Assembly (NCBI GenBank): GCA_037190965.1 | Contig: JBBCKI010000058.1 | Span: 1-26,752, forward strand | Length of the DNA: 26,752 nucleotides | Source of the DNA: Chthoniobacteraceae bacterium | Lineage (GTDB): Bacteria > Verrucomicrobiota > Verrucomicrobiia > Chthoniobacterales > Chthoniobacteraceae | Reading direction: 5' to 3' | Shown here: in pieces, positions 11,973 through 17,959 of the stretch | Position numbering within the stretch: position 1 is the first letter of the stretch | Layout of the letters: the number at the start of each line of letters is the position of its first letter | Notes under the pieces: generated by a model | What the model was told of the DNA's origin: nothing | The model's input: the letters and a program-made list of their open reading frames with translations, nothing else | Databases searched by the model: none | Position numbers and translations under genes: made by a program

Positions 11973-12136
11973 ATGGCTGGCATCGGTCTACCTTTTGTAT
12001 TCAGGCTCTAACTCGAATTCCGAACTTGGACGCAGCGATCCCCTCTGCGCCTACGATCTTTAAAGCCCCCATCCTATCCAAAATTAACACCCACAGAATC
12101 AAGCTGTTGAAGATGACAACGGAAAATGGAAATTTG

Positions 12137-12195
12137 TTTGACAGCCTCCGAAGGCGACCTTTATTTTTTGCCGGAACAAGGCGGGCGCTGTCAAA
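12137..12195 (+). promoter_or_regulatory. Candidate sigma70 promoter inside a TTTGACAGC...GCTGTCAAA inverted repeat upstream of the island genes
   Basis: TTGACA at 12138-12143, TATTTT at 12162-12167 (18-nt spacer); 9-bp inverted repeat 12137-12145/12187-12195. Confidence 0.35.
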
Positions 12196-12457
12196 GGCAA
12201 TTAAGAAATAAAGGAATTTAGAAAGGCATGAATAACCGAAAAGCATTAGTGGGACTAGGAGTATTTGTGATTTGTCTTTGGGTCGTGGTCGTGACGACGT
12301 ATGCCGCACAAATCGCGCGAAAAGGCGACGGAATCGAGCCAATGAATGCACCGGTAGGCTGTTCATCAACGTCTAGCGATCCGGGTGGTGGCGCCTAGAG
12401 ATTCTTCGATTACCAAGGATGATGCTGTTGGTTCCGATTCTAAACCGGAAGCTCAGG

Positions 12458-14164
12458 ATGGCGACGAGAAGGTGTATAGCCAGCAGAGTTAGTGCCCTAT
12501 CCATTGTTGCGGCGATCTGCGCATCTGTTTTACTTGCGACGGAACAGGGGCAAGCCTGTGGTATGTCTTGGAGCGAGCCTAGGAGCCATTTTGAGGGGGT
12601 TGATTATCAAGGCAATGTCATGCTGGTGGAGCGATTTGGGGAGATCGATGCTGGCGAAGGCTTAAAGTTTCCTTTTTTTGCCGTCTTCGGCTCCAATAGC
12701 GGCAACAATTCGCCTTATGCGGGCTACGGATGGACCGTGCCGCTTTTGGAGGCGAAGATCACTCAGGTGAACGAAAACACGTTCAAGCTCGACCAGCCTG
12801 ATGGGTGGTTTCGAATGTTCTGGCGGAGTAAAAATAACCCGAACACTCTTGAAGGTCAAGGGGGATGGAAAGCCGAAATCCGCGGTGATGCCATTACGGC
12901 ATGGGCAGATTGCGGCAGTAAGCTTGTTTTCAGCAAGGGAAGGCTCATTTTGATGCAGCTCCAAGAGCGGAAATTCGATTTCGTCTATGACCTGAGCCGA
13001 GTTGTCGAAATCAAAGAAAACGGCGCAGTCATTTTGAAAATTGAGCAGGATGCAATTAAGAGAGAGGTAACGGGATTTCGGTTTTCAAATAATCGGCGGA
13101 TTGGACTCGAGCGAGCCAAGCGTCCACGAGTGCAAGTCATTAATAATCAGAATCTGATCGCCGGGATGGATCAGAGTCTAAGCAAGATTTTTCTGGATGG
13201 CCGGACTATTTGCTCAATTGCGTACGCAGTCGACTCGAATTGCAACCCAATGTTGAATGAGGACAATAGACAGATCGTTTGGAGTGCGGCAACCAAGAAG
13301 GTAATCAAGGATAGGGGGTGGACCTACAGCGTGACGCCAGGTTCAAACGAATATGCTAGCGCAGCTATTGGTCGTAAAGGCGCCCAGGGTCAAAGTGAGT
13401 TCTGGCATAATGATTCCTCAAGGGGAACAGAAACAATTCAGCAGAAAGATGGAGCAAGGAGAACAATTTCACGCTTTACAAGCGGAGCATTGAACGGACG
13501 GATACGCAAAATCGAGGAAGTTCAGGGTGGTAGATCTAAGCTTATTTACCAAGCCTTTTACGACGAAAACGGAAAATTAATTCGCGAGATTGATAATAAT
13601 GGATGTTTAACAGAGTTTTTGATGGAGAATTCCGAAGCCGGAACGGTTTTACGTGCAATCAAAGAGGGGAAAGAGCTATGGTCTGAGATTTCCAATCGTG
13701 ATGGGAAAGTTGTGAAAAAAACATATGCTTCGGGCCTGATTACAGAGACGATAAAAGAAAACAATGGAAATGTAATAATTCATACGAAACAACCCAGTGG
13801 GCTTGACCAAAAAGTCGAAATATTTCCAAACAGGGAGCGCAAAGTGACCTCGAATGGATCTGGAATTGAATGTTACGACCATGAAAATAAGCTGATTCGA
13901 CGAATCGATCGTGACGGTGTTGTTACAAAGTTTTCTTACGATTTAGCTGCAGGTCGGATTGAAATAAAGAATGCCTTCAGAGGTGAACGCCTTATCTTTC
14001 GCGAGATTGCAAGGAAGGATAAAAGTCTCCATCTTAGGGCAAAGTACTCCCTGGATGGCGCTCTTAATCTGATTGACGATATCACACAGGGCGTTTCGAT
14101 TGACGTCGACGTGCTCCCAAGGGAAATTGTGGAGCTTTTATTATTGCGTGACGGTGGGTTGTAA
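12458..14164 (+). CDS. Secreted DUF6531-like / YD (RHS)-repeat protein without RHS core
   Basis: Signal-like N-terminus ending GQA|CG; SPYAGYGWTVPLL...QPDGWFRMF resembles DUF6531; YD-type repeats YDENGKLIREIDNNG and YDHENKLIRRIDRDGVVTKFSYD. Start 12419 or 12458. Confidence 0.7.
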   Translation: MATRRCIASRVSALSIVAAICASVLLATEQGQACGMSWSEPRSHFEGVDYQGNVMLVERFGEIDAGEGLKFPFFAVFGSNSGNNSPYAGYGWTVPLLEAKITQVNENTFKLDQPDGWFRMFWRSKNNPNTLEGQGGWKAEIRGDAITAWADCGSKLVFSKGRLILMQLQERKFDFVYDLSRVVEIKENGAVILKIEQDAIKREVTGFRFSNNRRIGLERAKRPRVQVINNQNLIAGMDQSLSKIFLDGRTICSIAYAVDSNCNPMLNEDNRQIVWSAATKKVIKDRGWTYSVTPGSNEYASAAIGRKGAQGQSEFWHNDSSRGTETIQQKDGARRTISRFTSGALNGRIRKIEEVQGGRSKLIYQAFYDENGKLIREIDNNGCLTEFLMENSEAGTVLRAIKEGKELWSEISNRDGKVVKKTYASGLITETIKENNGNVIIHTKQPSGLDQKVEIFPNRERKVTSNGSGIECYDHENKLIRRIDRDGVVTKFSYDLAAGRIEIKNAFRGERLIFREIARKDKSLHLRAKYSLDGALNLIDDITQGVSIDVDVLPREIVELLLLRDGGL

Positions 14165-14217
14165 GAAGAGCTTGAGTTGCGCAAACCTGAATTTTACAAA
14201 GATAGCTATAGTTTATT

Positions 14218-15516
14218 ATGTATAATGCATTCCAAAGGATTTGTGGATTCTATATTGCCCTGATTGCCGCTGCTTACACAGCGTCGGGAGATATTTCCGT
14301 TAGTGTTTCAGCCGATAAAACGGATATATGGAAGGGGAAGGAGGTGGAGTTTACAGCGAGTGTTACCGGGCAGGATGGAACTGTGGAATACAAATGGACG
14401 CTCCCTGACGGGGCTACAAGCCCCACCGATACAGATTCTACCGTGAAAGTCACCTTTAATAAAGAAGGTGAAGCGCAAAGCTGTTCTGTTTCGGTGAAAG
14501 ATAAATGCGGTCAAGCAGACGACTCGAAAAGCGTGAATGTCTTTACCTTGAGTTATAATCCCAATTCAATAAAGGTAGGCGTGGGAGGTAGCGAGGCCTT
14601 GATAGCAACAGTTAAACCGGAGAGTCTGAAGAGTAGTGTCACTTTTACTTCCGAGAATGATGCCGTGGCAACCGTGAGTGGAAATGCGCCAAATCTCTCG
14701 GTGGGGGGGGTAAGTGTCGGCTCAACGAGCATAGTTGGAGAACTCAATCAGGTGAAGGGAGCCAAGGTCCCGGTGACGGCAGAATGTAAATTGGTGCACA
14801 AGATATTGAAACATATATGTACAGCTCCGTTGAAATATTCGAATCGATACGTCGAAAGCCCTGTTAATCTTGCTAAAGTTTGGTTTGTTCAGGCGCCGTG
14901 CGGATATAATTATGGCAAATTTCAAAATGTGTCAGTGCTCAAAATAACTATAGATTACATTGACGGCAGCCAAAGTCACTGTGTTTCGACTGGCCGCCTT
15001 CGAGATATCTATACTCAAACTGAAGATAATCCTCCACCCTCTCATGTGATTGAGATAACTAGTGGTGGGTGGGTGCGGGTTCCGAATACACAATGGGAGT
15101 ACTTTGAGCATGATGACCCTCCCGGTTTCCCTCTGGGGAGAAACGAAGTTACTAAAATATCTAAATACACAGAAGAATGTGAATATAAATTTTATTTCCT
15201 TTCAAAGCCAGCGCAAGCTCCGGAGTCGGATTGGGAAACTGCATTGATCGGAGTGTGGGGATACACGAACGTGTTGGTTCGCAAGGAATTGAAGGATCCA
15301 AGTACGGGGGAGGTGACGGGGTATGACTTAGAAGTTGACACTGCTAACAGTACTGCTAACCCTGCATTTGGTGACGCGACAGGGGTTGCTGGTACTCCCG
15401 GATCGGAGCTTCCGCTTCTGACGGGGCAGGTTGCGATTCCCTTCATGAATTTTCATTGGACAGTTGTAACAGGTGGCACAAATAGTTATGCGGTAGAATT
15501 TCTTCGGAAACGCTAA
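14218..15516 (+). CDS. Secreted protein with PKD-like and Big_2 Ig-like domains plus unknown C-terminal domain
   Basis: Signal peptide (FYIALIAAAYTASG), PKD-like GKEVEFTASV...YKWTLPDG, Big_2-like ATVKPE...VTFTSENDAVATVS...GSTSI. Confidence 0.75.
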   Translation: MYNAFQRICGFYIALIAAAYTASGDISVSVSADKTDIWKGKEVEFTASVTGQDGTVEYKWTLPDGATSPTDTDSTVKVTFNKEGEAQSCSVSVKDKCGQADDSKSVNVFTLSYNPNSIKVGVGGSEALIATVKPESLKSSVTFTSENDAVATVSGNAPNLSVGGVSVGSTSIVGELNQVKGAKVPVTAECKLVHKILKHICTAPLKYSNRYVESPVNLAKVWFVQAPCGYNYGKFQNVSVLKITIDYIDGSQSHCVSTGRLRDIYTQTEDNPPPSHVIEITSGGWVRVPNTQWEYFEHDDPPGFPLGRNEVTKISKYTEECEYKFYFLSKPAQAPESDWETALIGVWGYTNVLVRKELKDPSTGEVTGYDLEVDTANSTANPAFGDATGVAGTPGSELPLLTGQVAIPFMNFHWTVVTGGTNSYAVEFLRKR

Positions 15517-15521
15517 ATTAA

Positions 15522-16106
15522 ATGAAAAAATTTAAAATTTCATTATCTATATTTGCACTATTGATTGCTTGTTGCGCAGGCGCTCAGATGGATATTGCTG
15601 TCAGTTCGATCGAGGAATATGATGCGCTTCCTGAAAAGGACCAAGCTAGAGTTGATCTCTTAAAGAGTGCAAGCTCGGTTAGGAAGATAGTGCGGGAACG
15701 GTTCTTAAGCGAAATGGAGATCAAGAACAAGGAATGGTTCGAAAAAAAGGTTAGGCGGCACGAGTTGATTCAACAAGGTGAAGCAAAACTAAGGGTTTAC
15801 TTCTTGATGCGGAAAATGTTTCTCGACAAGGCTGTCAGTTTGAAATTTCCGGACCTTAAAGCTCCAGAACTCCAGAGGCTCATGGATATGAATCCCGATA
15901 GCACTAAAGTGCTTGATCAAGTGCCACCTGAAGAGAGTGTTCGACTATGGAAAAAGTACAAATCCACCCTTGAAGATTTGGTCGGCAAATTTTCATTGGA
16001 CAGCGCTGATTTGAAAGCCATTTCTGATATGGAAGCTGCTTTTGCGCCACTGCTTCTTGAAATCGAGGAGGTCCGAGCTGTGCAGACAAAGAAAACGATA
16101 GATTAG
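15522..16106 (+). CDS. Exported hypothetical protein (possible lipoprotein), helical
   Basis: MKKFKISLSIFALLIAC fits a lipobox (LIAC), with alternative SPI site AGA|Q. Starts 5 nt after the upstream stop. Confidence 0.72.
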   Translation: MKKFKISLSIFALLIACCAGAQMDIAVSSIEEYDALPEKDQARVDLLKSASSVRKIVRERFLSEMEIKNKEWFEKKVRRHELIQQGEAKLRVYFLMRKMFLDKAVSLKFPDLKAPELQRLMDMNPDSTKVLDQVPPEESVRLWKKYKSTLEDLVGKFSLDSADLKAISDMEAAFAPLLLEIEEVRAVQTKKTID

Positions 16107-16419
16107 GAGAGAGTGGCTTCTAAACGCCATTCGAGTCAGTCATCAGTTCTAGATAAGATGGCCAGTTGAAACATCCAGTTCAGGAAAGGCGTGGCTCGCT
16201 CGGTATATTTGTCCCTAATGAGGGCCGGTAAAATTTGAGAGCGGTTTTTCCGAGATACTCCAAATAGCACTGGCAGAAAGCTGATTCCATCATTCTTCTG
16301 CAACTGCGATTGAAACTTTGGCATTAGCCGGTGGGGCGCTACATTTCTAGGGGGTTAGATCGTTGATCCCTCCGAATTGGTGACCAAACGTAAGCTTCTG
16401 TGAGCGCCGTGAGATGGGC

Positions 16420-17793
16420 CTAATCTCTCTCCGCGCCCGTCGATTTCGCGGGAACTGCCACCGCGTCCACGATTCGAAGTTGGGTGCAGAGTGTGTATCT
16501 CTCCCCGTTTCCGCCATTGGACTCGTATTCAAGCGCTGCGTAAAAGGCGATGGACCCGGTTGCGGGGCGATCCACAAGACCGAGGATCGCTTCTCCTTCC
16601 TGGCTCACCGGGCGTTTTTCCCACTTCGCTTCCCGGAAGTCATGCGTGGGGGATGCTGCGACCCAGAGGCTGGCCTCTTTCGGAGCGGGGGAGGAAACAA
16701 CGGAAAGGCGCGCGTTGCCCTCGGGTGTGTCCTCATGTTTCCAGGTGATCTTGGGGAAGGTCTTCCCGTTCAGTTCGGCGCGGACAAACGCGGCGATCGC
16801 GCCGATGGCGGCGTAAGGCGGCATTTTGGGTCCGTCGCCGAGTTGGACCAAATTATGGCCCGCATTGGGGACATAGTGAATCCACTTATCGCCTTTCAAG
16901 CCGTCCCAATACAGGTTAAGCGCGTCGGAGGCCCAGAAGGGGTCGTTGTTTCCGAGGACGATCAGTTTGGGCTGCGTGGTTTTTTCACGCAGCGAATAGG
17001 GATCGATCATTCTGAAAAGGTTCGATCTCTCTTCACTGGGCGGCAGGCTCAGGAGGGCGTGATAGTCTTTGGTGGCTGCACTCCAGCCGCCGCTTAGCGC
17101 GGTCTTCTGGTGCTTCATCTGGGCCTCGGTGTTGAGAATATCGATCACCATCGGCGCCAGCGCGACAACGCGGGAGTCGCTTCCCGCCGTAAGCCAGGTT
17201 GTCCATCCTCGCTTGGAGGCCCCGGTGACCACGAACTTGTCGATGCGGCCTCCCAGCTTTTGTTCGGAAAATTCGCCGACGGCGTCCATGGCCCGGACGG
17301 CGGCCTTCGTCATCGGGAAAAGGAGCGGCCAGGTGGCATCCTTGGTTTCCAAAAAGCGGTGGAGCGTATGAGCAATGAGCGCGTCCTCCCTGCGACCCTC
17401 CATGAGCGGCTGGTTGGGGACTTGCTTGAGAATGACGCATGGAACGCCGACGCTCTGCGCGAGCATTGTGCTGTAGAGAAGAGTGGCCGTTCCCGGTTTC
17501 TTGTCGAGGCTCCCCTGGCTTCCTCCGTCAATCAAAAGCAGCGCTGCGCCCGCCGGGGAGGGATTGGCCGGAGTGACAATGTAGAGGTTATGCTGCCATT
17601 GGACGCCCTGCCAGGTTTGCGAATGAAGCCGCAGTTCGTAAAGGGTGGCATCGGTCAGCTTGGTTTCGCCGAGCAGTTCCCAGCGATAGGAGGAATCCGG
17701 CTGCGCGAGGTACGCGGGCAAGTCGGCCCGCAAATGCGGGGCGACCCCCGAAAATAGCATGATAAGAAGAAAAGCCAGGAAGAGGGGGCGCAT
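16420..17793 (-). CDS. PhoPQ-activated pathogenicity-related protein PqaA family (alpha/beta hydrolase fold), secreted
   Basis: SQTWQG, QVPNQP, REDALIA, PMTKAAVRAMD, GASKRGWTTW, IDPYS, PNAGH. Signal peptide MRPLFLAFLL; start 17793 or 17802. Confidence 0.88.
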   Translation of the reverse strand: MRPLFLAFLLIMLFSGVAPHLRADLPAYLAQPDSSYRWELLGETKLTDATLYELRLHSQTWQGVQWQHNLYIVTPANPSPAGAALLLIDGGSQGSLDKKPGTATLLYSTMLAQSVGVPCVILKQVPNQPLMEGRREDALIAHTLHRFLETKDATWPLLFPMTKAAVRAMDAVGEFSEQKLGGRIDKFVVTGASKRGWTTWLTAGSDSRVVALAPMVIDILNTEAQMKHQKTALSGGWSAATKDYHALLSLPPSEERSNLFRMIDPYSLREKTTQPKLIVLGNNDPFWASDALNLYWDGLKGDKWIHYVPNAGHNLVQLGDGPKMPPYAAIGAIAAFVRAELNGKTFPKITWKHEDTPEGNARLSVVSSPAPKEASLWVAASPTHDFREAKWEKRPVSQEGEAILGLVDRPATGSIAFYAALEYESNGGNGERYTLCTQLRIVDAVAVPAKSTGAERD

Positions 17794-17959
17794 GGTTCTC
17801 ATATAAGGAAAATCGATCTTAAATTCAATCATGTCGGGCTTCCATTATACGCATGATTTGGGATGAAAGGTGGCATGGGATGAAGGACCCCGTTCCAGAC
17901 GGCTCGAGGAGATGTAAAATCCTCGCTTTCCGGGAGTTCCGCTGTTAGAGCCTCGATTT

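Follow-up and report, generated by a model that had tools for sequence, protein, structure and literature searches.

Can the parts of a rearrangement hotspot (RHS) toxin, which is understood as one chain made up of a shell, a self-cutting core and an enclosed toxin, be divided among separately exported proteins? A three-gene block in a Chthoniobacteraceae bacterium (4.2-Mb genome, 59% GC, 97%-complete) raises this question. It lies on a contig of 26,752 nucleotides (nt) (JBBCKI010000058.1, here C58), the whole of which we analysed and refer to as the window. A first-pass annotation had read the block as a split RHS cassette with a carrier, an Ig-stalked (immunoglobulin-stalked) cargo and a possible immunity lipoprotein. 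Open reading frames (ORFs), GC content and Pfam matches bear out its outline of an AT-richer block (46.0% GC vs 60.8% for the remaining window) flanked by recF (SMC_N) and pqaA (PF10142) and holding three + strand genes that lie 53 and 5 nt apart. Each gene also has the predicted N-terminal export signal, as judged by the hydrophobic-leader heuristic that underlies all leader and signal-peptide calls below. Gene 1 is a truncated RHS protein with a tyrosine-aspartate (YD) repeat, gene 2 a candidate effector and gene 3 a candidate immunity protein (Table 1). Comparison with relatives suggests that genes 2 and 3 are probably an effector-immunity pair. For the full model we see an even chance: a polymorphic effector-immunity cassette exported by Sec, its RHS part and its effector made as two different proteins, with gene 1 as a true partner.

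Secreted-looking proteins are usually encoded downstream of gene 1 homologues. In our bacterium's own genome, all four gene 1 paralogues precede a gene encoding a leader, an Ig-like stalk and a distinct C-terminal tip, followed by a third secreted-looking gene. Neighbourhoods drawn from GTDB-type genomes extend this pattern. Among 49 short forms from 21 genomes, 48 had a downstream ORF; this next gene was signal-peptide-like at 44/48 loci, vs 20% of 2833 background ORFs, and so was the third gene at 38/45 loci. At seven loci a leader-bearing, Cys-rich ORF of 90-160 amino acids (aa) directly behind gene 1 was passed over by gene picking. A second set (28 regions plus L091, one locus being again from G502) held 22 short forms with enough downstream DNA, 17 of them followed by a signal-peptide-like gene (the heuristic flagged 18, one a transposase fragment); two of the four heuristic misses are orphans followed by a housekeeping gene. 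The tips of 46 cargos fell into 38 C-terminal families, a clustering from which 12 loci without recognisable cargo, gap-hidden peptides and 3 full RHS cargos were excluded by hand. The first-pass annotation had named inconsistent downstream partners and invariant gene 2 C-termini as findings that would count against it; partners proved consistent, and C-termini and third genes are swapped together.

Close relatives locate the swap. In a midpoint-rooted tree of 57 cap regions, from which we claim no order of events, gene 1 and its paralogue on C53 group with three copies from genome G502 (support 95/88). Identity per 40 aa among the three G502 copies is 77-100% in the conserved core and 2-37% in the tail, the GC content of gene 1 drops from ~0.50 to 0.41 at the same place as this breakpoint, and genes 2 and 3 of the three copies have no BLAST match to one another. 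Similarly, L033 and L037 share the tail, the cargo (49.5%) and the third gene (25%), whereas L038, whose core is equally close to both, has a different tail, cargo and third gene.

Third genes follow the tips. Across 43 loci with both genes, the third gene was shared in 6/9 tip-sharing pairs vs 2/894 other pairs, and the six concordant pairs represent four independent families, each with members in different genomes. The window tip itself occurs in 2/401 genomes searched, its only homologues being the G000:C53 paralogue (46%) and, remotely, a protein on G484:C612 (E 2.8e-5). Immediately downstream of the latter, in a genome from another family, lies a homologue of gene 3 (E 8.9e-5), and these two matches rank as the best non-self hits in a set of 1818 ORFs. 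Gene 3 has no Pfam match. Its suspected lipoprotein nature was not sustained: Cys17 fits the lipobox pattern, but both homologues lack the Cys, and an AQ mature start is common to all three proteins, so that gene 3 is more likely a soluble periplasmic protein. In split form, the locus and its relatives combine two traits of polymorphic toxins, namely a constant trafficking part with exchangeable C-terminal domains and an adjacent cognate gene that co-varies with the tip.

What, then, is gene 1? Its only Pfam match is a single RHS_repeat (aa 486-513, PF05593, E 4e-7) and its only NCBIfam match TIGR01643. Pfam gave no DUF6531 match at E 0.1, and any such likeness would lie in the fold alone: Atlas neighbours include DUF6531 clusters, and the structural alignment begins at the Rhs core start. 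The predicted model (predicted local distance difference test, pLDDT, 88; 95-98 for aa 51-400) is a beta-meander almost to the C-terminus. Residues 59-444 align with residues 360-728 of the Rhs core 8qjb (Z 19.9, root-mean-square deviation 7.3 A, 336 aligned), the first 369 residues of a 1037-residue core. Top fold matches are exclusively Rhs, teneurin-like or toxin complex (Tc) shells, including teneurin-like 9ifo (Z 17.2, 261 residues aligned over 717-1471). Because the model spans only the initial third of the Rhs core, gene 1 as modelled is an RHS shell cap with the first turn, an open bowl, and alone too short to enclose cargo. This comparison does not support gene 1 as a cocoon-like carrier, given also the missing core protease and three loci (L068, G451:C10; L070; L071, G564:C11) in which a complete signal-peptide RHS of 1650-1860 aa stands directly behind the short YD gene.

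The truncated form is a large family of its own, as yet unnamed. A phmmer search of 1.84 billion representatives returned 237 clusters (50% identity) at E<=1e-30, with named relatives in Chthoniobacterales and other Verrucomicrobiota. An alignment of 149 near-full-length members, selected from the full-length hits, spans 384-595 aa; 117 members have a hydrophobic leader and none of the 149 the PxxxxDPxG core motif, and NCBIfam found no RHS-associated core (TIGR03696) in genes 1-3. Cys47 and Cys165 are both kept in 140/149 members and both lost in 6, Cys165 alone remaining in 3 (two without the N-terminus), while a lipobox precedes the Cys in only 6/119 members with the CG start. Since the Cys pair is co-conserved and the lipobox rare, we infer a signal peptidase I leader and a Cys47-Cys165 disulfide; translation may begin at Met14 (12458). 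The family is patchy, with matches in 7/151 genomes of the family, 33/401 of the order, 16/301 of the class and 10/401 of the phylum, counts that include our own genome, rest on differing E cut-offs and have full-length RHS as their weaker matches.

Gene 1 and gene 2 also appear linked across their boundary. Over 31 loci, pairs with homologous tails share the cargo N-terminus in 9/33 cases vs 12/432 otherwise, and in 6/28 vs 9/417 when only different genomes are compared, these pair counts not being independent. A helical-looking tail recurs at six loci in five genomes, all six with Ig-like stalks, even though identity between most of the cores is no higher than 23-40%; L044b and L112 share the tail and first Ig domain and differ in their tips. 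What is retained is a module that bridges the gene 1/gene 2 junction, with change on either side of it. A tail-Ig contact would fit this pattern, as would plain linkage. Complex prediction of gene 1 aa 47-420 plus gene 3 with gene 2 as partner gave no answer (score 0.00), an outcome obtained without controls, from 3-row alignments for genes 2 and 3, and with a construct that omitted most of the gene 1 tail, later the likeliest interface.

A literal division of an RHS protein is seen in relatives. The same cap stands at the start of complete RHS toxins, which have both a core and a tip (L074, L076), and, in family f16, at the start of shells that end at the first motif of the core. Such a core-less shell is intact in L082 (G521:C112, 1147 aa) and in pieces in L078 (G545:C11), L079 (G575:C1) and L094 (G458:C4). 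Behind the f16 shells stand genes of 200-350 aa that combine TIGR03696 (positions 12-76, from 12-13 on), above cut-off in 3/5 core-tip genes scanned, with a variable tip. Of six aligned core genes, five begin with a hydrophobic leader and the sixth is an ORF call beginning after it; all six have a short pre-core motif and their own partner gene behind. L082 and L094 hold two such cassettes each, L094 and L095 have a tip in common and, by eye, the partner too, and in L042 a core-less shell is followed by a leader-plus-tip gene without core. An assembly frameshift is an unlikely cause of the shell/core split because the core-tip genes have a dedicated leader, and f16 shells with their core-tip cassettes are, as far as these sequences indicate, the cleanest split RHS. 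Of the proposal of a split RHS with gene 1 as carrier, the split is supported, in relatives literally, while a cocoon-type carrier is not. L081/L095 (G506) also have a core-less YD shell and signal-peptide/core/tip cassettes, and such cassettes often occur in arrays.

How far does this arrangement depart from known systems? Like canonical RHS proteins (RhsA, RhsP, Tse5 and Tse15 of type VI secretion systems, T6SS, and the Sec-exported RHS described in Zhang 2012), it has a YD fold with, by predicted structure, an N-terminal cap, a variable tip with a matched downstream gene, and a swap point inside the YD gene. Unlike them, gene 1 is about one third of a ~1000-residue shell and has no core protease, the tip belongs to a different protein, which has a leader of its own, and the third gene is secreted-looking. 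The absence of T6SS features and of type IX secretion system (T9SS) features noted at first pass is upheld: NCBIfam found no T6SS or T9SS-sorting family on the cassette genes, and VgrG and TssC had no matches in the genome, PAAR not having been searched for. In Tc toxins, TcB-TcC and YenB-YenC build an RHS shell from two chains, and the gene 1 cap resembles the SpvB N-terminal domain (Z 11.3). Unlike these, gene 2 has no YD repeats or core, only PKD and Big_2 domains, and would be unable to complete a shell, while in relatives the break coincides with the core's first motif and every piece carries a Sec-like leader. No TcA was found among 24 window ORFs scanned with Pfam, the rest of the genome not having been searched. 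Orphan rhs-CT (C-terminal)/immunity cassettes are another comparison, resembled by the arrays of core fragment, tip and partner behind a shell gene in L082, L094 and L095. Unlike orphan rhs-CT, each cassette of these relatives begins with a hydrophobic leader and the shared short motif, because of which its export might require no recombination into the shell gene.

PMC13018210 presents bacterial teneurin-like proteins as YD-shell toxins that have a signal peptide, variable tips and accompanying immunity genes; each is a single chain comprising an NHL propeller and a closed shell. Gene 1, by contrast, is too short for an NHL propeller and a full shell, and the string 'verrucomicro' is absent from the main text of that paper. 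Zhang 2012 (PMC3482391) already lists RHS toxins with signal peptides, Ig-adjacent forms, tips of the HExxH type and immunity proteins that are secreted. Full-text searches, judged from result listings and abstract openings in a library with few subscription papers, gave no published account of a family of truncated caps standing alone or of core-tip cassettes with a signal peptide, of which the architecture tables of Zhang 2012 could hold cases. The system is not a canonical RHS, and seems organised as a polymorphic toxin system in an undescribed split form.

We propose that Sec would carry all three proteins into the periplasm, where gene 1 would bind gene 2, the likely contact being between the variable tail of gene 1 and the first Ig domain of gene 2, and would assist in displaying or delivering gene 2 at the cell surface, as a partner rather than a container. 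Outer-membrane exit would probably follow a general pathway, for instance type II secretion; the genome has five secretin matches. The tip may then attack a target of neighbouring cells, presumably in the envelope because the matched third genes look secreted, while in the periplasm of the producer gene 3 would render the tip harmless. Recombination at two sites, in gene 1 after about residue 390 and in gene 2 after the stalk, would generate new weapons. A broader version, in which the RHS of Verrucomicrobiota is a trans-loaded platform whose constant Sec-exported shell or cap joins in the periplasm with any one of several separately exported effectors chosen via an exchangeable tail-to-Ig code, seems to us somewhat less likely than not. 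If true, one scaffold gene could arm several toxins simultaneously without recombination or autoproteolysis, through a delivery that is neither T6SS, Tc nor T9SS.

Several observations weigh against the three-gene cassette that we favour, some through gene 1 and others through the tips. On the side of gene 1, the gene 2-3 pair of G484:C612 sits behind a tetratricopeptide repeat-like gene, without a gene 1 homologue; and the homologues in L028, L123 and L124 have no cargo behind. Genes 2 and 3 might instead be an effector-immunity pair exported alone, with gene 1 an island accessory, acting at the surface or in export, and an anchor for recombination without ever binding cargo. The G484:C612 pair speaks for this reading, as do the cargos behind gene 1, which range from ~90 to 1860 aa with no shared motif, and the position of gene 1 in islands with recurring Wzy_C, hydrolase-like, MauE and ABC (ATP-binding cassette) genes. 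This we regard as unlikely, since tail type tracks the cargo N-terminus across strongly diverged cores, and full RHS, shell-only and short forms share the cap and occupy the same slot. Gene 1 as a decayed remnant of a full-length RHS toxin is far less credible. Stops or insertion sequences do interrupt some homologues, but hundreds of intact members have a similar end point and keep the leader and the co-conserved Cys pair, and both gene 2 and gene 3 carry leaders of their own and are matched by an intact paralogous copy, which largely refutes it.

The remaining observations concern the tips. That of the window has no recognisable fold or catalytic motif and no match in Atlas, Pfam, PDB sequences or PHROGs, and single-sequence folding of gene 2 gave pLDDT 34. 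Of 103 downstream proteins searched with Pfam, one tip passed the cut-off (DUF922, E 3e-9, L046), the lone pass of the entire set, a second DUF922 remaining below it. The C43 tip is presumably 3D-like, the C30 and L024 tips we take to be transglutaminase-like, and a lysozyme-like label is likewise our assumption, all by-eye motif labels unscored in searches. Fourteen RHS-core tips gave no convincing match to cargo tips (best E 0.002). Many loci hold small Cys-rich proteins, not necessarily toxins, together with genes for DUF1573, C39 peptidase and MauE; rhodanese genes adjoin them as well, as do proteins that are presumably LolA-like (best Pfam E 0.011). Co-variation could arise from linkage alone. 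PKD and Big_2 stalks such as those of gene 2 are typical of adhesins, and teneurins, in the parts of PMC13018210 concerned with them, use the same fold for adhesion. One could picture a polymorphic assembly at the surface that is not toxic and serves as adhesin or in kin recognition, with gene 1 as scaffold, gene 2 as variable Ig-stalked adhesin and gene 3 as its folding chaperone or binding partner. We consider this improbable, since relatives display the typical toxin-immunity pattern: DUF922 tips and an HExxH motif common to 4 aligned tips, spare third genes arrayed where no cargo is present (L025, L021), and a separate partner behind every RHS core-tip cassette. Peptidases of the HExxH type are among the known tips of RHS toxins (PMC3482391).

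Whichever role gene 1 has, its family separates the parts of an RHS, its commonest form retaining the cap alone, and so is a natural dissection of cap function. It bears on how Sec-exported RHS toxins gain access to targets in Gram-negative bacteria without a T6SS. It also brings to view ~38 mostly unnamed families of candidate envelope-acting effectors, with matched partners, in an abundant soil phylum.

Table 1. Positions in the window of the inserted block, its genes and their predicted parts
Feature	Positions	Strand	Basis
Low-GC inserted block, recF to pqaA interval	11973..16350	.	GC contrast; G004 recF-rmlB adjacency
Gene 1, truncated RHS/YD protein ('bowl'), 581 aa	12419..14164	+	ORF, Pfam, phmmer family, predicted structure
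Gene 1 predicted Sec/signal peptidase I leader, predicted mature start Cys47	12419..12556	+	Leader heuristic, Cys conservation
Gene 1 conserved core, aa 47 to ~391, predicted RHS N-terminal cap and first YD turn	12557..13591	+	Predicted structure vs 8qjb
Gene 1 variable tail, lower GC, includes sole Pfam YD repeat (13874-13957)	13592..14164	+	Pfam, GC, relatives
Gene 2, leader, Ig stalk and variable C-terminal domain, 432 aa, candidate effector	14218..15516	+	ORF, Pfam, leader heuristic
Gene 2 PKD domain, aa 29-108	14302-14541	+	Pfam
Gene 2 Big_2 domain, aa 114-178	14557-14751	+	Pfam
Gene 2 C-terminal domain (tip), aa 190-432, no known family	14785..15513	+	Sequence searches
Gene 3, secreted-looking, 194 aa, candidate periplasmic immunity protein	15522..16106	+	Homologues immediately downstream of the two gene 2 tip homologues

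The block is an insertion, because recF and rmlB, ~6 kb apart in the window (cassette plus pqaA), are separated by ~108 nt in the closest same-genus genome, G004. Across five same-genus genomes, recF is followed almost directly by rmlB in one (G004), by a small gene and an rml gene in two and by other genes in two. GC at third codon positions is 0.43-0.49 in the three cassette genes vs 0.72-0.74 in recF and pqaA. No terminal repeats were found at the block boundaries. Promoter-like sites number 9 vs 5.9 +/- 2.3 by chance, and the DNA is present in soil-metagenome runs; no RNA data are listed among the sequencing runs that match window DNA. Noncoding positions 12210-12343 upstream of gene 1, possibly a conserved leader, have no second copy in the genome; a further contig from those sequencing runs matches them at ~86% and has an additional match close to where gene 1 starts. 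The gene pqaA (16420-17832) has host-like GC but was found in only 1/5 same-genus genomes, at a different genomic position.

An island recurs at the YD slot (L045, L046, L048, L049, L059, L063, L064 and others), with genes for a Wzy_C-like membrane protein (18 genomes), two hydrolase-like proteins (14), MauE (11) and ABC-2 or other ABC proteins (8), besides rhodanese, DUF1573, a fused ABC-2 transporter and unnamed genes of 150-200 and 650-710 aa. The case for the 650-710 aa neighbour as a dedicated export gene was weakened by its near-core distribution (133/151 family genomes); its three best-scoring copies are in gene 1-carrying genomes, and our own genome has an ordinary copy only. This near-core protein of ~650 aa (L047:1748-3700 family; G000:C45 11536-13221) has no Pfam or NCBIfam match. 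A likeness by eye between the window tip and that of L122 was unsupported on comparison. In L088 (64-3718, G000:C7), a large Ig-repeat protein whose tip looks lysozyme-like (unscored) precedes a secreted gene that is FG-GAP-like and of a similar kind to the genes arrayed downstream of the L025 gene 1 homologue, which has no cargo. L070, one of the loci with a complete RHS behind the short YD gene, has one more copy, which ends in a rhodanese-like tail. In L108 (G911:C28) a gene 1 homologue is followed by a gene that by eye looks radical-SAM/SPASM and by a 390-aa protein with 34 Cys and, again by eye, a twin-arginine-like leader.

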